64,000 nt of DNA. It comes from Escherichia coli. GTDB lineage: Bacteria; Pseudomonadota; Gammaproteobacteria; Enterobacterales; Enterobacteriaceae. A model generated the notes under the pieces. That model saw only the letters and a program-made list of their open reading frames with translations. It was not told the DNA's origin and made no database searches. The stretch lies in assembly GCF_044647545.1 (NCBI RefSeq), contig NZ_CP172818.1; one strand, written 5' to 3'. Both the position numbers and the translations under genes were made by a program. This document shows positions 45,069 through 63,038 of this stretch, piece by piece. Numbering within the stretch: position 1 is the stretch's first letter; each line of letters starts with the position of its first letter.

Positions 45069-45097
45069 AATTCACTCATGAAAATGAGTTCAGAGAA

Positions 45098-45127
45098 CCG
45101 CAAGATTTTTAATTTTGCGGTTTTTTG
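45098..45127 (+). terminator. putative terminator after aspV
   Basis: CCGCAA ... TTGCGG hairpin followed by T6. Confidence 0.5.
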
Positions 45128-45393
45128 TATTTGAATCCCGCCATTTCTCTGTTCAATGATTTTACTCTAGCGTAAGTGCGTGATTCTCGCTTGTTGTCTC
45201 ATTCATTAAAATTCAATAATGATATCGAGCCATTCAGCTTAAATATATTTTCAGAGAATAATTTTATATTGATTAAGTGAATGTATATTTCAAATTGATT
45301 TTATTTGTTATTATTTAAGTGGGGTATATAATTAGAGTTCGTTATCAGTGCTAAATATTCTAATCATTATGACAGGCGAGGGAGTGTCCGATT

Positions 45394-46179
45394 ATGAATT
45401 CAAAAAAGGTTTGTTGCATATGTGTGTTATTCTCGCTGCTTGCAGGATGTGCCTCTGAATCTTCTATTGATGAAAAGAAGAAAAAAGCTCAAGTCACACA
45501 AAGTAATATTAATAAAAATACCCCCCTGCAACTGACAGACAAAGATTTATTCGGTAATGAAACCACTCTGGCCGTATCCGAGGAGGATATTCAAGCTGCG
45601 CTTGATGGAAATGAGTTCCGCGTTCCCCTTAATTCTCCTGTAATACTTGTTCAATCCGGCAACCGCGCACCGGAAACCATTATGCAGGAGGAGATGCGAA
45701 AATATTATACTGTTTCCACATTCTCTGGTATCCCGGACAGGCAAAAGCCTCTGACTTGTAACAAAAACAAAGATAAAAATGAGAACGAGGATGTTGCCAG
45801 TGCTGAAAATATGAACTGGATGCAGGCATTGCGTTTTGTGGCTGCGAAAGGGCATCAGAAAGCGATTATTGTTTACCATGATACGTTGCAGACAGGAAAA
45901 TATGACACTGCACTGAAATCAACAGTATGGTCCGATTATAAAAATGAAAAAATTACTAACACAATCTCACTGCGCTATCTGGTGCGATTCACGCTGGTGG
46001 ATGTAACTACAGGTGAGTGGGCTGCCTGGTCGCCGGTGAATTATGAATATAAAGTGCTTCCACCATTGCCCGGCAAGAATGAAGCCAGTACGACTGATAT
46101 GACAGAGCAGCAAATCATGCAACTTAAGCAAAAGACCTATAAAGCGATGGTAAAAGATTTGGTTAACCGCTATCAATAA
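45394..46179 (+). CDS. yafT: putative lipoprotein
   Basis: 261-aa ORF; signal peptide plus lipobox LAGC; AT-rich codon usage. Confidence 0.85.
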
Positions 46180-46328
46180 TAAATTATATCTGCCGCCAGG
46201 AATTTCTGGCGGCAATAATACAGAATTCTTTGCATAAGAAATTTTTTCCTGACAAAGACTGTGCAAAAAAGGACATGGAATCCGGAGTTAAAAACTGTTT
46301 GTTTTAGAATATTTAATTATTTAACTGC

Positions 46329-46796
46329 TTAATCTTCCTTGCGAGAAATATATTCATTATTACATTTCATGCCATTTTTAATATAGGTTGCTCCTGGGAA
46401 AATCCCCGTGTTATTACCGCAGGGGTGATAATTATCATTAACATATCCTGTGACAAAAGGAGCTATTAAAGGTGCTATTACGATAGCTATTAGTAAAAAT
46501 ATAAGAGTTAGCTGTATTGTTATGTCTGTGGCGAAATTGATTACCTTTGTTTTTTTTATTAAGAATGATTTTATTATCGTTAGTAAAATTACATGAATAT
46601 TTAACAAGGAAAACGATATGAAACCGAAGCATAGAATCAACATTCTCCAATCATAAAATATTTCCGTGGAGCCTTTTATTATTGAATATAGAGGTTTAAT
46701 TCCGGTAAAAAACAAAGATGCATTGAATGCAGGGAAAAATAATATGGCTATAAAAAACATCGAAAGAAACTCTTTCAATTTAACATGTAAACGCAT
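46329..46796 (-). CDS. ykfM: putative inner membrane protein
   Basis: 155-aa hydrophobic, AT-rich ORF; start may lie a few codons upstream. Confidence 0.65.
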   Translation of the reverse strand: MRLHVKLKEFLSMFFIAILFFPAFNASLFFTGIKPLYSIIKGSTEIFYDWRMLILCFGFISFSLLNIHVILLTIIKSFLIKKTKVINFATDITIQLTLIFLLIAIVIAPLIAPFVTGYVNDNYHPCGNNTGIFPGATYIKNGMKCNNEYISRKED

Positions 46797-46810
46797 AGTT
46801 AATCCTCATA

Positions 46811-47098
46811 TCACAGGGGGGTGTTAAGAACATACATAAATGGAGTCATGTTTTCCCTTTTCCATTTATCAAGTTCCTGTTGCCGTTTTAGTCCATCTCT
46901 AATTGCATCTTTTAATTTTTCTGATAAATGGTATTGAACATCGATTTCATTTAAAACAACTGTACACACTATCCCCGTAAGTAAAATTGCTCCTCCTACA
47001 AGAATTACTGGAAGGCCAAAACTAAGACAGGCAAAAGAAGCCAGGCTTCCAATAGCGGTTGCAACACCGCCTGCAATCACTGCTTTGGCCACATCCAT
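46811..47098 (-). CDS. yafU: putative small membrane protein
   Basis: 95-aa ORF with a hydrophobic helix; start uncertain. Confidence 0.6.
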   Translation of the reverse strand: MDVAKAVIAGGVATAIGSLASFACLSFGLPVILVGGAILLTGIVCTVVLNEIDVQYHLSEKLKDAIRDGLKRQQELDKWKRENMTPFMYVLNTPL

Positions 47099-47162
47099 TG
47101 AAAAATCACCAAGAAAATTAACCAGATCTCGCTCTGAACTCGTAATAAATTCTATGGTTCTG

Positions 47163-47439
47163 CTGATTTAACCGCAGAAAAGTTCGCCACAGCAATCCGA
47201 AACCACTGGCACGTGGAGAATAAGCTGCACTGGCGTCTGGACGTGGTAATGAATGAAGACGACTGCAAAATCAGCGAAAGAGGAAACGCCGCAGAATTAT
47301 TTTCAGGATACGGCGCATCGCTATTAATATTTTGACGAATGATAAGGTATTTAAGGCAGGGTTAAGACGTAAGATGCGAAAAGCAGCTATGGACAGAAAC
47401 TATCTGGCGTCAGTCCTTGCGGGGAGCGGGCTTTCGTAG
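47163..47439 (+). mobile_element. yafF: H-repeat (ISAs1-family) transposase C-terminal fragment, frameshifted
   Basis: Translation ...[40 protein letters not shown]... then, after a frame change, ...[36 protein letters not shown]. Confidence 0.75.
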
Positions 47440-47477
47440 TCTTCCCCGACTCTCCCCGGCCTTAAATACAACACCAC

Positions 47478-48248
47478 TCACCACAACCTAAACTCATCCG
47501 CATCCCGCCATGCCGGAAACTTTTCTCTATATTCCCGCAATGCCACCATCGACAGCTCCGCATCAATGCGCGTTGCCTGATGCGCGTCGGCAGTAGCGAT
47601 AATCTCGCCCTGTGGATTAATCACCCTGCTGTCACCACGATAATGGCAGCCGTTGCCATCGCTGCCGACGCGATTGCATCCCGCCACATACGCCTGATTC
47701 TCAATCGCGCGGGCTGTCAGCAATGCCTGCCAGTGCAGAGAGCGCGGAGCAGGCCAGTTGGCGACGTACAGGGCGAGGTCATAATCGTTGAGATTGCGCG
47801 ACCACACAGGAAAACGTAAGTCGTAGCACACCAGCGGCAAAATACGCCAGCCGCGCCATTCCACAATCACTCGCGCATTGCCCGCTTTATAATGCAGATG
47901 CTCATCTGCCATGCGGAACAGATGACGCTTATCATAAAAATGTACCGTGCCGCCCGGCTCAACCAGCAAAAAGCGGTTAACCGAACCAGACTCCGTTTGT
48001 AATGCAACACTGCCTGCAATCAGCGCATTGCACTGCTGCGCCTTAGCTGTCATCCAGTTCACTACGTCATTTTGTGCTAGCGACGAAGCTGCCGCTTCCA
48101 TGGCAAAGCCGCTGGTAAACATCTCCGGTAGAACGATCACATCGCGCCCGGTAATACCTTCCAGTTGACGATCAAAATGGCGCAGGTTGGCAGGGCCATC
48201 CATCCACACCAGTGGTTGCTGCAAAAGCGTAATCTTCAAACCAGGCAC
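47478..48248 (-). CDS. yafV: omega-amidase / nitrilase-family hydrolase (GTG start)
   Basis: 256 aa (M)PGLKITLLQQPLVWMDGPANL; CN-hydrolase fold. Confidence 0.88.
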   Translation of the reverse strand: MPGLKITLLQQPLVWMDGPANLRHFDRQLEGITGRDVIVLPEMFTSGFAMEAAASSLAQNDVVNWMTAKAQQCNALIAGSVALQTESGSVNRFLLVEPGGTVHFYDKRHLFRMADEHLHYKAGNARVIVEWRGWRILPLVCYDLRFPVWSRNLNDYDLALYVANWPAPRSLHWQALLTARAIENQAYVAGCNRVGSDGNGCHYRGDSRVINPQGEIIATADAHQATRIDAELSMVALREYREKFPAWRDADEFRLW

Positions 48249-52180: not shown

Positions 52181-52291
52181 GGTCTTTTCTCCCCAGGGAG
52201 AGGGCCGGGTGAGGGTAACAGCCTGCACCTTTGTACTTTTTAATCAATCTTCGCCGGGGGCCATGCGCTCCCGCTGTTGTGGAGGTTACCC

Positions 52292-53059: not shown

Positions 53060-53770
53060 TGCCAGCTGTGGCTGCACAACTTCGTGGCTTAACGGCTTGC
53101 TGACCACGTAACGGCCATTGACCACAGAAACGGTCGGTGGCTTACGGGTTTGCTCAAAGTAGTCGTAGCCCGGCTTCAGTTGCTCCCAGAAGTCCTTAAA
53201 GTTGGAATATTTATGGCGCTTCATATTGGCGTCGGTCATGCGGAACGGGTAAATACTCACTTGCACGCTCGGCTGACCAAACACCAGCGCACCAGTAACG
53301 AACTGGAAGATCTCATCAATACCCTGATTGGTCATCGCGTAGCAGCCGATGGAAACACAATCGCCGTGGATCATCAGATATTTCCCTTCATAACCATGCG
53401 CACGGTCATAGGCATTGGGGAATCCAATATTAATCGCTTTGTAGTAACGGCTGTCTGGTTTTAACTGATTACGCTGGACGCTATAAAACCCTTCCGGGCT
53501 TTTGAAATCGCCCTGACGCTGTTTTGGCCCTAAGCCGCCGGAATATTTACAGATTTTATAGCTGTCGAGCAGTTGATATTGCTCGCCCATTTTGACGTAG
53601 AGATCGAGCGTACGTTCTTCCTTGAAGATCTGGATGTAGACAGGGGATCCCATCAACTGCTGCTTATACTCTTTGCTCACTGGCGTGGTCGAGCTACTGC
53701 TGCCCAGCAAACCGGCAAACGAAACGCACGGGATCAACAACATCGCAAGAATTAATGCGATTTTACGCAT
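53030..53770 (-). CDS. yafK: L,D-transpeptidase
   Basis: 246-aa ORF with signal peptide; YkuD-type motif around [12 protein letters not shown]. Confidence 0.88.
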
Positions 53771-53924
53771 ACTGCTTATTCCTTGATAAAACGGTTACAC
53801 ACGCCAGGACGGCAAAATGGATCCCAAATCGGAATAGTCTGGATTTGGAAGGCTCACATTATCACCAAAAGAGTTTTACGCAAGCCTGTCGGCGCAGGGT
53901 TTACAAATTTCATCGGCAGCGGGC

Positions 53925-54203
53925 TTTACCCAAATAGCGCCGCGTGAGTTCCAGTTCTCTCAAATCGTAAAAGTTTATCGGTAAGTTTGTAAATCAGGAT
54001 CCAGTCCGGTTCGACATGAGCATCGCGATAACCTTTCCATGAACCTTGCAGCGGGTGGTCTTTATAAACAGCTGGAAGCAGTAAAGTATTATTGATAAGA
54101 GCGTCATAAGATATTTCAATTTATTCATATCCTTATGACGCTTTTGTGCAAGTTTTACATCCTTTGAAAATTGTCCCGAGTATTCAATATCCCTTTGAAT
54201 CAT
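53925..54203 (-). pseudogene. yafQ: YafQ mRNA-interferase toxin, frameshifted
   Basis: First 36 codons from ATG at 54203 match YafQ; frame breaks near 54094-54096; the +1 frame continues with ...YKDHPLQGSWKGYRDAHVEPDWILIYKL...FERTGTHAALFG to 53925. Confidence 0.8.
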
Positions 54204-54205
54204 AT

Positions 54206-54466
54206 TTAAATTCCTAATTTATCAAATAAATCATCGGCGTCTTTGGCCTTATGAATACCAACGCCAGCTTCGCTGTTTTTGATTGATTGAATAGTTAATT
54301 GATTAGGCTCGCGTAAATCAAACGGCAATGCCTTTTCACGCGCGACCTTTGTGAGGGTTATGCGAACCAGGTCAGAGATGGTCAGCCCCATCCCGGCCAG
54401 TACGTCCGCCGCCTGATTCTTCAGATCTTCATCGATTCGGGCGCGAACAAACGCGTTAGCAGCCAT
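54206..54466 (-). CDS. dinJ: DinJ antitoxin
   Basis: 86-aa ORF MAANAFVRARIDEDLKNQAADVLAGMGLTISD; immediately upstream of yafQ. Confidence 0.92.
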   Translation of the reverse strand: MAANAFVRARIDEDLKNQAADVLAGMGLTISDLVRITLTKVAREKALPFDLREPNQLTIQSIKNSEAGVGIHKAKDADDLFDKLGI

Positions 54467-54482
54467 TGGGATATCTCCTGTG

Positions 54483-54498
54483 CTGTATATTTATTCAG
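54483..54498 (-). promoter_or_regulatory. LexA-like box in dinJ promoter region
   Basis: CTGTATATTTATTCAG, close to CTGT-N8-ACAG. Confidence 0.5.
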
Positions 54499-54675
54499 CT
54501 TGAATTGTAGCTCAAATGAGCAACAGCGACAATCCATGAGTAATTTAATAAACGGATGTTTTTACATAATTAACTGAAATATATTTATTAATTTTATAAT
54601 AATGGTTTATTAAGTTTGTTCAGGTACGGGCCGGGATACACTGCAACATCAATGCATGACCAGCCATTATTGAGA

Positions 54676-55425
54676 ATGTCTTTGCCGTCGATTCCCTCTT
54701 TTGTGTTGTCGGGATTACTGTTGCTTTGCTTGCCGTTTTCTTCATTTGCCAGCGCCACCACATCACATATCTCTTTCAGCTACGCCGCCCGCCAGCGGAT
54801 GCAAAACCGTGCGCGTTTATTAAAACAGTACCAAACCCATCTGAAAAAACAGGCCAGCTATATTGTGGAAGGCAATGCCGAAAGCAGAAGGGCGCTACGC
54901 CAGCACAACCGGGAGCAGATAAAACAGCATCCAGAATGGTTTCCTGCGCCGCTCAAGGCGAGTGACAGACGCTGGCAGGCGCTGGCGGAAAACAACCACT
55001 TTTTAAGCAGCGATCACCTGCATAACATCACCGAAGTGGCGATTCACCGCCTGGAGCAGCAGCTTGGCAAGCCTTATGTCTGGGGCGGCACGCGGCCCGA
55101 TAAAGGCTTCGACTGTAGCGGGTTGGTTTTTTATGCCTACAACAAGATCCTTGAGGCGAAGCTCCCGCGCACAGCCAATGAGATGTATCACTACCATCGG
55201 GCAACGATTGTGGCGAACAACGACCTGCGCCGGGGAGATTTGCTGTTTTTCCATATTCACAGCCGCGAGATAGCCGATCATATGGGGGTGTATCTGGGAG
55301 ACGGTCAGTTTATCGAGTCACCACGTACCGGCGAAACCATTCGGATAAGCCGGTTAGCTGAACCTTTCTGGCAGGATCATTTTTTAGGCGCGCGGCGGAT
55401 TTTGACGGAAGAGACGATTTTGTAG
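54676..55425 (+). CDS. yafL: NlpC/P60-family putative peptidoglycan endopeptidase
   Basis: 249 aa from MSLPSIPSFVLSG; signal peptide; conserved Cys (DCSGLV) and His. Confidence 0.85.
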   Translation: MSLPSIPSFVLSGLLLLCLPFSSFASATTSHISFSYAARQRMQNRARLLKQYQTHLKKQASYIVEGNAESRRALRQHNREQIKQHPEWFPAPLKASDRRWQALAENNHFLSSDHLHNITEVAIHRLEQQLGKPYVWGGTRPDKGFDCSGLVFYAYNKILEAKLPRTANEMYHYHRATIVANNDLRRGDLLFFHIHSREIADHMGVYLGDGQFIESPRTGETIRISRLAEPFWQDHFLGARRILTEETIL

Positions 55426-57182
55426 GCAGGGATCTCCCCCACAACACTCAACGCCCCCATAATCTTCAACTCCAGCTCGTCCGGCACTTCGTTATACGAC
55501 AGCACATGCAGCCCCGGCGCAAACAATCTCGCATAGCGCGCCAGCAAAGGGCGCAACTGCGGTGGCACCAGCAGCACAGGGTCTTTCCCCGCCGCTTTCA
55601 TCTGCTCCTTCACCTGCGGCATCGTACTCTGGAACTGGTTGAGCATATTCGGGTCTACCGGCACGCTGTCGAGCATCACTTTGCCGGCCTGTTGCGCCTG
55701 ATTCACCACGTTGGTCAGCAGATTTTCCAGCTCATTATTCAGCGTATACACCGTCAGCTCCTGCTTGCGAACGAACGGATGGGTAATGCTGCGCCGCAGC
55801 GCCAGGCGCACATCTGCCGCCAGCAGAATATGATCTTTGGTCACCGCACTACTGGCGACCAGCACGGTGGCGATGGTGACGATATCGCGCAGGGAAACGC
55901 CTTCAGTCAGCAGCGCCCGGTACACTTTCAGCAACTGGCTGTAATTCAGCGCCGCGCTCAAATCCTCCGCCAGTCGCGGTGCCATCGACGACAGGCGGTT
56001 ATGCAACTGCGTAATATCGTCATAGTTAAATAAATCAGGAATATAGCTGCGCACAATCTTATTCACATGCGTGGCAATTACGCTGGCGCTGTCGATCACC
56101 TGATACCCCATATTCAGCGCCTTCGCTTTCTGCGCAGGCTGAATCCAGGTGACCGGCATCCCATATGCCGGGTCATTCCCCAGTACGCCGTCAATCTCGC
56201 CGTAGGTTTCGCTGGAGGGCAGGGCCATCAGTTTATCCGCCGGAATATCCGCTTCATCAGCCTTAATGCCGTTGATGAAAATGGCGTACTGGCTGGGCTT
56301 GAGACGGAAGTTTTCCCGAATACGGATCTCCGGCAGCAGCACGCCGTTACCGTCGGATATCACCTGCCGCACGCCGCGAATCCGCTGGGTGAGCGGGTTC
56401 CCCTGCGCTTTGTCCACCAGCGCCACCAGCTTGTAGCCGAGGCTTAAGCTGATGGGCTCGATCAGCGGAATGGTTTCCCAACTGACCTGTTGCTCGCTGG
56501 TTTCGGTGATGGTTCGGGTCAGCGTTTCGAGGCTTTTCTCCTCCGCCTCCGCCGCCTGCGGGCGTTTGCTCATCCGCCAGCCGGTAAAGCCAAGCAGGGC
56601 GCTGAACAGCAAAAATGGCAGATGCGGCATCCCCGGCACCACCGCCAGCACAAACATGATCCCGGTGGCGGTGTAGAGCACCGACGGACTTGCCAGCAGC
56701 TGGTGGCGCACGTCATGGGCGATATCGCCGTTGTCGCTGACGCGGGTGACGATAATTGCCGCCGCGGTGGAGAGCAGCAGGGACGGGATCTGCGCCACCA
56801 GCCCGTCGCCGATAGTCATCAGCACATATTGCTGGAAGGCGGCGTCGGCGCTCAGGTTGTATTTGAAGATCCCGATACAGACGCCGCCGATCAGGTTGAT
56901 CGCCAGAATCATCATCCCGGCGATGGCATCGCCGCGCACAAACTTCGATGCCCCGTCCATTGCGCCGTAGAAATCGGCCTCGCTGGCAACATCTTTACGC
57001 CGGGTTTGTGCCTGCGCCTGGTTGATCAATCCGGCGTTAAGATCGGCGTCAATCGCCATCTGTTTACCGGGCATCGCGTCCAGGGTAAAGCGGGCAGAAA
57101 CCTCGGAAATACGCTCGGCCCCTTTGGTGACGACGATAAAGTTGATTGTCAACAGCGTCAGTAAATCCGAGCGTGAAAGCAT
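55377..57182 (-). pseudogene. lfhA: FlhA-like flagellar export protein remnant (Flag-2 cluster), 5'-truncated
   Basis: About 600-aa ORF with FlhA-family similarity (…FVRGDAIAG…, C-terminal cytoplasmic domain) lacking the N-terminal TM region and a credible start. Confidence 0.8.
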
Positions 57183-57912
57183 TATCGCCGCGCTACACGG
57201 GCAGTCGATTTTTAACGGTGGCGGGCTGTCGCCGTTAAATAAAATCAGCCCGTCTCATCCGTCAAAACCTGCCACCGTGGCAGTGCCGGAAGAGACGGAG
57301 AAAAAAGCGCGCGACGTCAACGAGAAAACGGCGCTGCTGAAGAAGAAATCCGCCACCGAGCTTGGCGAGCTGGCGACCAGTATCAATACCATCGCCCGTG
57401 ATGCGCATATGGAAGCGAATCTGGAGATGGAGATTGTTCCCCAGGGATTACGCGTGCTGATTAAAGACGACCAGAACCGCAATATGTTCGAACGCGGCAG
57501 CGCACAGATTATGCCGTTCTTTAAAACTTTGCTGGTGGAGCTTGCGCCAGTGTTCGACTCGCTCGATAACAAAATTATTATTACCGGGCATACCGATGCG
57601 ATGGCCTACAAAAACAATATCTACAATAACTGGAACCTTTCGGGTGACCGCGCGCTTTCGGCTCGTCGGGCGCTGGAAGAGGCAGGAATGCCGGAAGATA
57701 AAGTGATGCAGGTGAGCGCAATGGCGGACCAGATGCTGCTGGACGCGAAAAATCCGCAAAGCGCGGGCAACCGGCGCATTGAGATTATGGTGCTGACTAA
57801 AAGCGCGTCCGATACGCTGTATCAATACTTTGGTCAGCATGGGGATAAAGTGGTGCAGCCGCTGGTGCAAAAGCTGGATAAGCAGCAGGTGCTTTCACAG
57901 CGAACGCGTTAA
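57157..57912 (+). pseudogene. lafU: MotB/OmpA-like flagellar motor protein remnant (Flag-2 cluster), 5'-truncated
   Basis: C-terminal OmpA-like domain (NWNLSGDRALSARRALEEAG...NRRIEIMVL); no N-terminal TM segment or start codon; 5' boundary approximate. Confidence 0.7.
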
Positions 57913-57982: not shown

Positions 57983-59038
57983 ATGCGTAAAATCATTCAT
58001 GTGGATATGGACTGCTTTTTCGCAGCGGTGGAGATGCGCGACAATCCCGCCCTGCGCGATATCCCTATTGCTATTGGCGGCAGCCGCGAACGTCGGGGGG
58101 TGATCAGCACCGCCAATTATCCCGCGCGTAAATTTGGCGTACGCAGCGCTATGCCGACAGGGATGGCGCTCAAATTATGCCCACATCTCACGCTGCTTCC
58201 AGGGCGCTTTGACGCCTACAAAGAAGCCTCAAATCATATCCGCGAAATTTTCTCGCGCTATACCTCGCGCATTGAACCGTTATCACTGGATGAAGCCTAT
58301 CTCGACGTCACCGATAGTGTGCATTGCCACGGTTCTGCGACCCTCATCGCCCAGGAAATCCGTCAGACGATCTTTAACGAGCTGCAACTGACGGCATCTG
58401 CGGGCGTTGCGCCGGTAAAGTTTCTCGCCAAAATTGCTTCCGACATGAATAAACCCAACGGTCAGTTTGTGATTACGCCGGCAGAAGTTCCGGCATTTCT
58501 GCAAACCTTACCGCTGGCAAAAATTCCCGGCGTCGGCAAAGTCTCGGCGGCAAAACTGGAAGCGATGGGGCTGCGGACCTGCGGTGATGTGCAAAAGTGT
58601 GATCTGGTGACTCTGCTCAAACGTTTTGGCAAATTTGGCCGCATTTTGTGGGAGCGTAGTCAGGGGATTGACGAGCGCGACGTTAACAGCGAGCGGTTGC
58701 GAAAATCCGTCGGCGTGGAACGCACGATGGCGGAAGATATTCATCACTGGTCTGAATGTGAAGCGATTATCGAGCTGCTGTATCCTGAACTTGAACGCCG
58801 TCTGGCAAAGGTAAAACCTGATTTACTGATTGCTCGCCAGGGGGTGAAATTAAAGTTCGACGATTTTCAGCAAACTACTCAGGAGCACGTCTGGCCGCGG
58901 CTGAATAAAGCTGATCTGATCGCCACCGCGCGTAAAACCTGGGATGAACGTCGCGGCGGGCGCGGTGTGCGACTGGTGGGGCTGCATGTGACGTTGCTTG
59001 ACCCTCAAATGGAAAGACAACTGGTGCTGGGATTATGA
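57983..59038 (+). CDS. dinB: DNA polymerase IV (Y-family translesion polymerase)
   Basis: 351-aa [25 protein letters not shown]. Confidence 0.95.
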
Positions 59039-59089: not shown

Positions 59090-59383
59090 ATGCATCGAAT
59101 TCTCGCTGAAAAATCGGTCAATATCACTGAGTTACGTAAAAACCCAGCTAAATACTTTATTGATCAACCGGTTGCGGTTCTTTCTAATAATCGCCCCGCA
59201 GGATATCTCTTAAGTGCCAGCGCATTTGAAGCGTTAATGGACATGCTTGCTGAACAAGAGGAGAAAAAACTGGTTAAGGCGCGCTTCCGTCCGAGTGCCG
59301 CAAGATTAGAGGAAATTACACGCCGCGCTGAACAATATCTTAATGATATGACGGATGATGATTTCAATGACTTTAAGGAATAA
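59090..59383 (+). CDS. yafN: YafN antitoxin
   Basis: 97-aa ORF; Phd/YefM-like; precedes yafO. Confidence 0.88.
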   Translation: MHRILAEKSVNITELRKNPAKYFIDQPVAVLSNNRPAGYLLSASAFEALMDMLAEQEEKKLVKARFRPSAARLEEITRRAEQYLNDMTDDDFNDFKE

Positions 59384-59385
59384 GG

Positions 59386-59784
59386 ATGCGGGTATTCAAA
59401 ACAAAACTTATTCGCCTGCAACTTACAGCAGAGGAACTTGATGCGTTAACAGCGGATTTTATTTCCTATAAGCGTGACGGTGTTTTGCCAGATATATTTG
59501 GTCGCGATGCACTCTACGACGACTCGTTTACCTGGCCATTAATCAAATTTGAGCGAGTTGCTCATATTCATCTGGCAAATGTGAATAATCCATTTCCGCC
59601 ACAGTTGCGCCAATTCAGCAGAACGAATGACGAAGCGCATTTGGTATATTGTCAGGGTGCGTTTGATGAGCAAGCATGGTTGCTCATTGCCATTCTGAAA
59701 CCTGAACCTCATAAACTGGCTCGAGATAACAACCAAATGCATAAAATTGGGAAAATGGCAGAAGCGTTTCGCATGCGTTTTTGA
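59386..59784 (+). CDS. yafO: YafO ribosome-dependent mRNA interferase toxin
   Basis: 132-aa ORF MRVFKTKLIRLQLTAEELDALTADF. Confidence 0.88.
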   Translation: MRVFKTKLIRLQLTAEELDALTADFISYKRDGVLPDIFGRDALYDDSFTWPLIKFERVAHIHLANVNNPFPPQLRQFSRTNDEAHLVYCQGAFDEQAWLLIAILKPEPHKLARDNNQMHKIGKMAEAFRMRF

Positions 59785-59793
59785 ATTTATATT

Positions 59794-60246
59794 ATGAATA
59801 ACATACAAATAAGAAACTATCAGCCTGGCGATTTTCAGCAACTATGCGCTATTTTCCTTAGAGCGGTTACGATGACCGCCAGTCAGCATTATTCACCACA
59901 ACAAATTGCCGCCTGGGCGCAGATTGACGAATCTCGCTGGAAGGAGAAACTCGCGAAATCACAAGTGCGGGTTGCAGTTATTAATGCACAACCGGTTGGT
60001 TTTATTACCCGCATTGAACATTATATCGATATGTTATTTGTTGAACCTGAATACACCCGACGCGGGGTTGCCAGCGCTTTGTTAAAACCATTGATTAAGT
60101 CTGAATCCGAACTTACGGTGGACGCCAGCATAACCGCAAAGCCCTTTTTTGAACGTTATGGTTTTCAGACAGTTAAGCAGCAGTGCGTTGAATGCCGGGG
60201 AGAGTGGTTTACTAATTTTTATATGCGATATAAACCGCAACATTAA
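59794..60246 (+). CDS. yafP: GNAT-family N-acetyltransferase
   Basis: 150-aa ORF; acetyl-CoA-binding motif RRGVASALL. Confidence 0.88.
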   Translation: MNNIQIRNYQPGDFQQLCAIFLRAVTMTASQHYSPQQIAAWAQIDESRWKEKLAKSQVRVAVINAQPVGFITRIEHYIDMLFVEPEYTRRGVASALLKPLIKSESELTVDASITAKPFFERYGFQTVKQQCVECRGEWFTNFYMRYKPQH

Positions 60247-60424: not shown

Positions 60425-60691
60425 ATGGAATGGTACATGGGCAAATATATTCGTCCCTTATCCGATGCGGTATTTACCATCGCATCTGATGACCTGTGGA
60501 TCGAGAGTTTAGCGATCCAACAATTACACACCACGGCAAATTTACCCAACATGCAACGCGTAGTAGGGATGCCAGATTTACATCCCGGACGCGGCTATCC
60601 GATTGGCGCAGCGTTCTTCTCCGTAGGCCGTTTTTACCCGGCAAGACGTCGCGGTAACGGTGCTGGAAACAGAAACGGGTCGCTACTCTGA
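60425..60691 (+). pseudogene. ykfJ: RtcB-like RNA ligase N-terminal fragment
   Basis: 88-aa ORF with RtcB-type motif GMPDLHPGRGYPIGAAF, then terminates; overlaps prfH. Confidence 0.7.
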
Positions 60692-61160
60692 CACACTGCG
60701 TTCGGCGCTGATTTCTCTGGATGGCGATAACGCATGGGCTCTAAGCGAAAGCTGGTGTGGCACTATCCAGTGGATTTGTCCGAGTCCGTATCGGCCTCAT
60801 CATGGGCGCAAAAACTGGTTTCTGGGCATTGGGCGTTTTACCGCTGATGAGCAGGAACAATCCGACGCGATCCGTTATGAGACGCTGCGTTCGTCGGGGC
60901 CGGGCGGTCAACATGTCAATAAAACCGACTCGGCGGTACGCGCCACGCATCTGGCATCCGGTATTAGCGTGAAGGTTCAGTCAGAGCGCAGTCAGCATGC
61001 TAACAAACGGCTGGCGCGATTACTGATTGCCTGGAAGCTGGAACAACAGCAACAGGAAAATAGCGCGGCGCTGAAATCGCAGCGGCGAATGTTCCATCAT
61101 CAAATTGAACGTGGCAATCCGCGACGGATATTTACCGGGATGGCTTTTGTTGCTGTGTAA
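60660..61160 (+). CDS. prfH: peptide chain release factor homolog RF-H (likely N-terminally truncated)
   Basis: 166-aa ORF with GGQ motif ([20 protein letters not shown]). Confidence 0.85.
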
Positions 61161-61580: not shown

Positions 61581-63038
61581 TTACTTCGCCGGAATTTCTT
61601 TCAGCAGTTCAGTCAGCAGTGTCCAGTAATGGCCTACGCTTTCGATGTGAACTTGCTCATCCGGAGAGTGTGGACCGGTGATTGTTGGCCCGATAGAAAC
61701 CATGTCCATTTCCGGATACGGTTTTTTGAACAGACCACATTCCAGGCCCGCGTGGATAATCTGGATGTTCGGCGTCTTGTTGAACAGACGCTGATAGGTT
61801 TCACGTACCAGATGCATCACCGGAGAATTAGCGTCCGGCTGCCAGCCAGGATATGCGCCTTTCGCTTCGGTTTTCGCGCCAGCCAGTTTACCCAGCGAAT
61901 CCAGCATGCTCACCACGTAGTCTTTACCGCTGTCGATCAGTGAACGGATCAGGCAGTGAATTTCTACGTTATTGTCAGTCATGGTCACCACACCGACGTT
62001 CAGGGAGGTTTCGACCACACCTTTTGCAACGTCGGAATTGCGGATCACACCGTTCGGGGTGGCGTTCAGCAGACGAATAAAGGTATCGCGAGATTTCGCA
62101 ATCAGGGCAGCTTTATCGTTCGCAACAGAGTCCAGCAGCAATGCCAGATTTTTCTCTTTCTCTGCCAGCTCGTTTTTCAGGATCTCCTGATAGGTATTCA
62201 CCAGAGATTTCAGTGTATCGACTTTATCAGCTGCGACAGCAATGGTCGCAAAGGCTTCACGCGGGATGGCGTTACGCAGTGTGCCGCCGTTGAAATCAAT
62301 AAGACGCAGGTCCAGTTCTTCTGCATGACCCGCCAGGAAGCGCACCAGCAGTTTGTTGGCATTACCCAGGCCAACGTGGATTTCACCGCCGGAGTGACCG
62401 CCTTTCAGACCTTTTAAGGTTAACTTGAAGGTTTCAAAACCAGCTGGAACCGCTTCACGATCTAAATGCAGGTTGGAGGTGAAGTCGATACCTCCCGCAC
62501 AACCCATGTAGATTTCACCTTCTTCTTCGGAGTCGGTGTTAATCAGAATATCAGCCTGCAACCAGTTGCTCTGTAAGCCAAAAGCACCGTCCATACCGGC
62601 TTCTTCGGTCATGGTCAGCAGCACTTCCAGCGGGCCGTGAACCACGTTTTCGTCAGCCAGAACCGCCAGTGCAGAGGCCATACCAATGCCGTTATCCGCA
62701 CCCAGCGTGGTGCCGCGTGCTTTAACCCATTCGCCATCAATATAAGGCTGGATAGGATCTTTAGTGAAGTCATGCACGGTGTCGTTATTTTTTTGCGGCA
62801 CCATATCGAGGTGGGCCTGCAAGACGACCGGTTTACGATTTTCCATACCTGCGGTAGCAGGTTTACGAATCAGGATATTACCTACCTGATCGCGTTCGAC
62901 ATGGAAACCTTTCTCTTTTGCCCAACCAACAATGTATTCAGCGAGTTGCTCTTCATGATAGGACGGGTGAGGAATAGAACAGATTTTGGCAAAAATATCC
63001 CACAGCGGCTGTGGAGATAATTGAGACAGTTCAGACAC
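61581..63038 (-). CDS. pepD: cytosol nonspecific dipeptidase (aminoacyl-histidine dipeptidase)
   Basis: 485-aa ORF MSELSQLSPQPLWDIFAKICSIPHPSYHEEQ; M20 family. Confidence 0.95.
   Translation of the reverse strand: MSELSQLSPQPLWDIFAKICSIPHPSYHEEQLAEYIVGWAKEKGFHVERDQVGNILIRKPATAGMENRKPVVLQAHLDMVPQKNNDTVHDFTKDPIQPYIDGEWVKARGTTLGADNGIGMASALAVLADENVVHGPLEVLLTMTEEAGMDGAFGLQSNWLQADILINTDSEEEGEIYMGCAGGIDFTSNLHLDREAVPAGFETFKLTLKGLKGGHSGGEIHVGLGNANKLLVRFLAGHAEELDLRLIDFNGGTLRNAIPREAFATIAVAADKVDTLKSLVNTYQEILKNELAEKEKNLALLLDSVANDKAALIAKSRDTFIRLLNATPNGVIRNSDVAKGVVETSLNVGVVTMTDNNVEIHCLIRSLIDSGKDYVVSMLDSLGKLAGAKTEAKGAYPGWQPDANSPVMHLVRETYQRLFNKTPNIQIIHAGLECGLFKKPYPEMDMVSIGPTITGPHSPDEQVHIESVGHYWTLLTELLKEIPAK

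Follow-up and report, generated by a model that had tools for sequence, protein, structure and literature searches.

The window analyzed here, a stretch of 64,000 nucleotides from Escherichia coli, carries the dinJ-yafQ toxin-antitoxin locus on its minus strand, where yafQ lies directly downstream of, and in the same orientation as, dinJ, between dpaA and yafL. Over 621 nt, the locus is 98.2% identical to dinJ-yafQ of strain K-12, which speaks for homology, not chance, and bears out the identification of a DinJ-YafQ pair made earlier from the letters of the DNA (the sequence-only reading). The features of the locus are the following:

54532-54504, minus strand: sigma-70 promoter-like site, TTGTCG-17 nt-TACAAT (9/12 in a consensus scan; invariant in six alleles)
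54498-54483, minus strand: LexA-type box CTGAATAAATATACAG (CTG-N10-CAG), in the gap between promoter and dinJ (pattern match; identical to K-12)
54479-54475, minus strand: Shine-Dalgarno sequence AGGAG of dinJ (read from the sequence; conserved in six aligned alleles)
54466-54206, minus strand: dinJ, intact ORF of 86 aa, its stop 2 nt before the ATG of yafQ
54203-53926, minus strand: yafQ pseudogene, native ATG at 54203-54201 and native TAA at 53928-53926; 278 nt versus 279 nt in the reference
54203 to 53994, minus strand: encoded ORF of 69 aa; MIQRDIEYSGQFSKDVKLAQKRHKDMNKLKYLMTLL, YafQ residues 1-36, then 33 out-of-frame residues; stop TGA at 53996-53994
54100..54101, minus strand: site of the 1-nt deletion, 54101 being C and 54100 the surviving T (nucleotide alignment and coordinate mapping)
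53926..54120, minus strand: untranslatable remnant frame with YafQ residues 37-92, including all catalytic ones; open from a TAA at 54123-54121

The antitoxin gene had been described as intact from 54206 to 54466, and the minus strand indeed encodes an uninterrupted DinJ there. This protein (WP_000729708.1) scores 83.7 bits on the RelB/DinJ model TIGR02384 (cutoff 45.65), which it covers with residues 1-84 of 86, and it differs from DinJ of K-12 only by I68V, D69G, and V70I (83/86 residues, 96.5% identity). Judged by the matches listed above, the upstream promoter-like site and the LexA-type box of the K-12 dinJ operon appear conserved in the window. LexA is described as binding the dinJ promoter, and DinJ is reported to repress its own locus and also cspE, which affects RpoS (PMC4996492). 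By analogy, autorepression by DinJ is likely in the strain from which the window stems, and toxin-independent repression of cspE, affecting RpoS, possibly takes place in its lineage.

The lesion in yafQ and the product that remains

The window was aligned with the alleles of K-12 MG1655, E7-1N7, O157:H7 strain 1130, 2013C-3513, and 19-5. Relative to all five, it lacks one nucleotide: K-12 reads GACGC-TT-CTTATC where the window reads GACGC-T-CTTATC, which means that codon 35 has lost one of its two T and that CTT-CTT (codons 35-36) has become CT-CTT. The nucleotide alignment to a reference yafQ, which the sequence-only reading had itself proposed, thus found TT in the reference and a single T in the window, and not the same sequence and frame in both. 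On the minus strand, the first 36 codons from the ATG at 54203 specify the N-terminus of YafQ and are followed by 33 unrelated codons and a stop, exactly as had been read before. The frame does break, but not at 54094-54096, where the break had been located; the lesion lies 4-6 nt upstream, with the surviving T at 54100. The earlier placement was a few bases too far downstream because CTC-TTA still reads Leu-Leu, which is also why the product is native up to residue 36. Likewise, a shift by one base does restore the C-terminal half of YafQ (the -1 frame reads ...INNTLLLPAVYKDHPLQGSWKGYRDAHVEPDWILIYKLTDKLLRFERTGTHAALFG*), but its TAA occupies 53928-53926, and the gene therefore ends at 53926 instead of 53925. 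A single missing base had correctly been held responsible; its context, however, is no short T/A run but the TT dinucleotide of a tandem CTTCTT (a homopolymer of five or more is found nowhere in yafQ), and what is missing is a T of the coding (minus) strand, where the plus strand would show an A, and not a T on the plus strand as had been stated.

The 33-residue out-of-frame tail (SIILYCFQLFIKTTRCKVHGKVIAMLMSNRTGS) is unrelated to YafQ and has a hydrophobic start. When the TT was restored by adding a T, a sequence of 280 nt resulted that encodes 92 aa plus a stop and differs from K-12 YafQ by two changes, Y12F and P42L. Compared with the nearest intact alleles, yafQ of the window shows one further change, which is synonymous, and decay beyond the deletion is not visible; this fits a young allele and is no proof of non-function. 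In strain SMS-3-5, a RefSeq feature of equal length (278 nt) is flagged "frameshifted." The locus also does not have the make-up of a phase-variable (contingency) locus, as the indel lies outside any simple-sequence repeat or long homopolymer, and the allele is fixed, being identical in 159 genomes.

The repaired 92-aa protein scores 115.3 bits on TIGR00053 (YafQ family; cutoff 87.25), a family that we take to lie within the RelE/StbE superfamily TIGR02385, and over its full length, it can be aligned with the K-12 YafQ chains of known structure (4ML2, 4ML0, 4Q2U, and 4MMG). The encoded 69-aa product reaches 27.0 bits on the same model and covers profile positions 1-35 alone. The DNA is yafQ by descent; its encoded product is not a member of the TIGR00053 family. 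With the repaired YafQ above the family cutoff and the encoded product below it, the pairing of an inactivated toxin with an intact antitoxin, as suggested previously, appears well supported.

Mutagenesis has shown that the activity of YafQ needs Y47, H50, D61, H63, D67, H87, and F91 (PMC4652777). All seven are situated downstream of residue 36 and encoded in the -1 frame only, and the translated 69-aa product lacks each of them (H50, H63, D67, H87, and F91 as well as D61 and Y47). The four-stranded β-sheet of the RNase fold is also encoded beyond residue 36. Among the 64 codons of the remnant frame, there is no ATG, GTG, or TTG, the only conceivable starts being ATT, ATA, ATC, and CTG; correspondingly, the list of ORFs of the window holds none of at least 25 aa that terminates at 53926.

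The frameshift could, in principle, serve as an expression throttle if programmed recoding, by -1 ribosomal frameshifting or by transcriptional slippage, yielded low amounts of active YafQ. The downstream YafQ frame is fully open and shows no more damage, and the truncated ORF has A-AAG at two places, codons 48 and 57, where tRNA-Lys could pair anew once it has slipped by -1; at codon 48, this would give rise to a 92-aa hybrid retaining H50 to F91. However, the 69-codon ORF contains no X XXY YYZ heptamer, as would be expected for a programmed -1 frameshift, nor is there a homopolymer of five or more on which the polymerase could slip, and any slip must come after the TAA at 54123-54121. Even the best hybrid has unrelated residues 37-47 and has lost Y47, and the exchange Y47A abolishes toxicity (PMC4652777). 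Moreover, the nearest intact alleles, apart from the one synonymous change, differ in the extra T only, as would be expected of a simple mutation, and unrelated yafQ lesions in three other lineages (see below) argue for plain loss of function. As the heptamer is missing and Y47 is lost in the best hybrid, recoding is very unlikely. With the catalytic residues past the break, and with neither an internal start, nor a heptamer, nor a homopolymer present, we infer from the sequence, together with the published mutagenesis of K-12 YafQ, that the toxin of this allele would be dead.

Distribution and history of the deletion allele

To trace the allele, 80-bp probes were used. Centered on the deletion, a probe of this length drops below 99% identity upon any single difference, whereas a 99-bp probe is non-discriminating because a lone gap still leaves it at 99.0% identity. 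Of 5,426 complete E. coli genomes, 159 contain an exact match to the 80-mer across the deletion. Many complete genomes match the whole 621-bp locus at 100% identity, among them SMS-3-5, ST648, IMT16316, MS6198, and ECONIH1 (at least 87 genomes, according to the ranking of matches). The carriers were isolated on several continents from human, dog, poultry/chicken, cattle, wild bird, pangolin, dolphin, and wastewater. In all six carriers that were inspected, PGAP/RefSeq annotates yafQ as a "frameshifted" pseudogene, and the same DinJ (WP_000729708.1) is encoded next to it; these six genomes and the window constitute the direct check for an intact dinJ in carriers of the deletion.

A sequencing or assembly error had been left open by the sequence-only reading; yafQ of the source strain would then be intact and the loss of the T an artefact, of which a single-base indel is a classic sign. 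However, the 159 genomes sharing the exact 80-mer were sequenced independently, in many laboratories and from diverse hosts, the deletion sits in a TT dinucleotide and not in a homopolymer, and ST648-type genomes, all of which have the deletion, match the window at 99.9% identity over 8 kb. The caveat is thereby removed, the chance of an artefact being next to nil. The same 8 kb of identity places the window in the ST648-type lineage. ST648 and SMS-3-5 presumably belong to phylogroup F. Within the F/G/B2 lineage, dinJ-yafQ was found to be carried by F alone (PMC6896753), with which the placement of the window in phylogroup F fits. Within the E. coli genome collection, 12 matches to the dinJ-yafQ locus fell on plasmid-labelled records. 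If these are true plasmid copies, an orphan DinJ on the chromosome could be of use as an anti-addiction factor against plasmid-borne YafQ.

The extent of identity around the deletion differs between carriers:

53418..54674: smallest shared haplotype around the deletion, 1,257 bp, in which SMS-3-5 and ECCNB12-2 show no difference from the window
SMS-3-5 and ECCNB12-2: identical to the window at 53418-54674 only; outside, 7-14 differences per 500 bp
2016C-3878 and MRY15-117: near-identical to the window at ~50.9-55.4 kb, the nearest single differences being at 52209 and 55447; 2-4% divergence rightward
WB61 and CLSC36: essentially identical to the window over 10 kb

The 7-14 differences from SMS-3-5 and ECCNB12-2 in the 500-bp bins that adjoin the shared haplotype correspond to a divergence of 1.5-3%. 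At 53900-54400, the window and the nearest intact alleles, those of E7-1N7 and AF57, are four to five positions apart, the indel included. F-type dinJ-yafQ alleles amount to roughly 176 genomes, of which 159 have the dead allele and about 17 an intact one. The possibility that the window is SMS-3-5 itself was ruled out, as the flanks are 98.3-98.8% identical and the strains differ in rayT and in Flag-2.

The surroundings of the locus show several peculiarities of their own. At 55427-55443, the window has 17 bp in place of a 785-bp segment of K-12 and SMS-3-5 that carries rayT (REP-associated tyrosine transposase), and the ORF of an lfhA remnant (55377-57182) therefore runs into the 3′ end of yafL (54616-55425); rayT is also absent from WB61, CLSC36, and E7-1N7. 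At 55377-57912, there is a deletion scar of the Flag-2 (lateral flagella) cluster as in K-12, with a truncated lfhA/flhA-like ORF (601 aa) abutting lafU; the cluster is intact in SMS-3-5, ECCNB12-2, and E7-1N7. At 56900-57400, WB61 deviates from the window by 38 differences per 500 bp, a sign that the tract may have been imported or that the junction is another one. Further on, dinB (57983-59038) is followed by yafN (~59090-59383) and yafO (59386-59784), an apparently intact toxin-antitoxin pair. As this SOS-linked pair is only 5 kb away, decay seems specific to yafQ and not a general trait of the modules in the region. Between yafP (59794-60246) and pepD (61581-63038), an ORF of 166 aa with a GTG start (60660-61160) contains a GGQ motif, which is typical of peptide-chain-release-factor-like proteins; the ORF presumably resembles prfH. 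On the other side, a 2.4-kb segment next to a tRNA-Asp gene (45075-47490), which is absent in SMS-3-5, contains small membrane-protein-like ORFs and a lipoprotein-like ORF of 261 aa (45394-46179), which we take to resemble YafT of K-12.

Carriers of the deletion come in three structures: Flag-2 intact with rayT, Flag-2 deleted with rayT, and Flag-2 deleted without rayT. The codon-35 deletion thus appears to have a single origin and to reside now in at least three flank or structural backgrounds, within nested identical blocks ranging from 1.26 kb to more than 10 kb. Such nesting indicates recombination around, or together with, the presumably dead allele. The simplest reading of the sequences is one mutational origin and subsequent recombination, by which either the flanks were overwritten or the allele was moved to new backgrounds.

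Recurrent lesions in yafQ and the retained antitoxin

The deletion in the window is one of four lesions encountered in yafQ:

Codon 35, 1-nt deletion (window): 36 native and 33 unrelated residues; 159 genomes (exact 80-mer)
O157:H7 type, 2-bp deletion in codons 7-8: 22-aa product; 297 genomes (exact 80-mer)
19-5 type, 9-bp deletion and Lys-to-stop exchange: premature stop; ~217 genomes (diagnostic 80-90% identity band)
2013C-3513 type, 6-bp deletion removing the ATG: consequence uncertain; annotated by PGAP as 95 aa with ATT as start, in overlap with dinJ; 119 genomes (exact 80-mer)

In positions of the respective fetched locus, the three lesioned genes other than that of the window lie at 518-794 (O157:H7 strain 1130), 518-787 (19-5), and 503-790 (2013C-3513). 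Their consequences were verified by translation, and dinJ is intact in each. The count of 217 is approximate because it derives from an identity band together with a single example that was inspected; the cross-bands of two probes agreed, at 118 and 296. Together, the four lesions amount to ~792 of ~3,339 locus-bearing genomes (~24%); when only the three unambiguous knock-outs are considered, the share is ~20%.

DinJ was full-length (86 aa) in 14 of 14 sequences, that is, the window and 13 fetched loci. Variation among these 14 alleles was confined to residues 68-70 and, in O157, residue 86:

54257-54265: DinJ codons 68-70, which read IDV in K-12, otherwise VDV or VGV, and VGI in the dead-toxin allele

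These residues fall in the C-terminal, toxin-binding half of DinJ, and V70I is specific to the dead-toxin allele. Judged from the sequences of these alleles, E. coli appears to lose the function of YafQ first, recurrently, and to keep DinJ.

The other lesions bear on whether the 69-aa product might have retained a non-toxic function, for example as a co-repressor binding DinJ or by binding the ribosome without cleavage. Its residues 1-36 are native, and the α1/α2 helices of YafQ contact 16S rRNA (PMC4652777); furthermore, translational coupling to dinJ persists with the 2-nt spacing, and the allele is widespread. However, the tail of 33 residues is unrelated to YafQ, and in other lineages, YafQ is cut after 22 residues or has lost its start codon, so that no common N-terminal fragment is kept across the dead alleles. 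The 69-aa fragment also lacks the β-sheet core of the microbial RNase fold (PMC4652777), and stable folding is therefore unlikely. Taken together, a retained function of the fragment stands only a slim chance.

Interpretation and comparison with known systems

We therefore consider it highly probable that the window carries an inherited yafQ pseudogene of single origin, with a dead toxin, a retained DinJ, and flanks shuffled by recombination. The missing T in codon 35 would shift the frame and cause the ribosome to synthesize a 69-aa peptide that keeps roughly the N-terminal third of YafQ, by estimate the region of α1 and α2. Devoid of the β-sheet and of every residue required for ribosome-dependent mRNA cleavage, this peptide could not be expected to act as a toxin. 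dinJ, being translated first from the common promoter, would be unaffected, and DinJ would still be made as an antitoxin and repressor, without a cognate toxin in cis. The module would lose its capacity for addiction and growth arrest. The deletion allele would have arisen once and would now mark ST648-type and related lineages, its flanks having been shuffled by recombination.

Whether toxin-dead, antitoxin-live alleles of dinJ-yafQ are favored, and not merely tolerated, is another matter, and we regard the idea as doubtful. The occurrence of an allele of one origin in divergent backgrounds of the F lineage, in blocks of 1.26 kb, ~3-4.5 kb, and >10 kb, is compatible with homologous recombination having put dead alleles in the place of live ones. 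Addiction would be escaped in such a replacement because DinJ is never lost. If it were true, DinJ would be kept for a toxin-independent task (regulation of cspE/RpoS or plasmid anti-addiction), and YafQ would be a net cost.

As a functional YafQ would be missing, phenotypes ascribed to DinJ-YafQ (persistence, biofilm tolerance, growth in the cold) should not be assumed for ST648-type strains. A survey of 2023 in mBio accepted toxin hits of at least 30 aa (PMC10790755). By this minimum, the 69-aa remnant would score as YafQ, and the survey may therefore overstate functional YafQ in phylogroup F.

The yafQ frameshift of the window as such is ordinary and already known, being flagged as a pseudogene in RefSeq, and nonsense and deletion mutations are an established route by which chromosomal toxin-antitoxin systems of E. 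coli decay (PMC7167474). The literature searched dealt with the decay and distribution of toxin-antitoxin systems in general; it contained no account of these yafQ lesions, though an earlier description is possible, nor were the pattern of single origin and recombination and the tally of independent lesions found there. The latter two are modest population-genetic observations. With four independent lesions and the antitoxin retained, dinJ-yafQ illustrates neatly how a chromosomal module decays in nature, toxin first; this is not new as a concept, and the locus is useful material for asking whether orphan antitoxins are selected.

One of the closest known systems is the type II pair DinJ-YafQ of K-12 (b0226/b0225; 4Q2U, 4ML0, 4ML2), which is orthologous and occupies the same site between dpaA (yafK) and yafL. 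It shares with the window the promoter region, the LexA-type box, the Shine-Dalgarno sequence, and the 2-nt spacing between dinJ and yafQ; the window differs by the loss of one T in codon 35, which leaves 36 native residues and would render it toxin-dead. The yafQ pseudogene of SMS-3-5 (ECSMS35_RS01180, "frameshifted") and the corresponding ST648-type feature agree with the window at every base of the locus (621/621), deletion included, with WP_000729708.1 as the DinJ protein here too. In contrast to this identity, the flanks diverge by 1.5-3% between SMS-3-5 and the window, from which rayT and most of the Flag-2 cluster are missing. A parallel from another family, as far as the reviewed account of it goes, is the decay of ccdO157 (Mine et al, 2009; reviewed in PMC7167474), where, in some lineages, toxin-inactivating mutations in a type II module at a conserved chromosomal position likewise leave the antitoxin to persist; the toxin is a gyrase poison there and a RelE-like RNase here.
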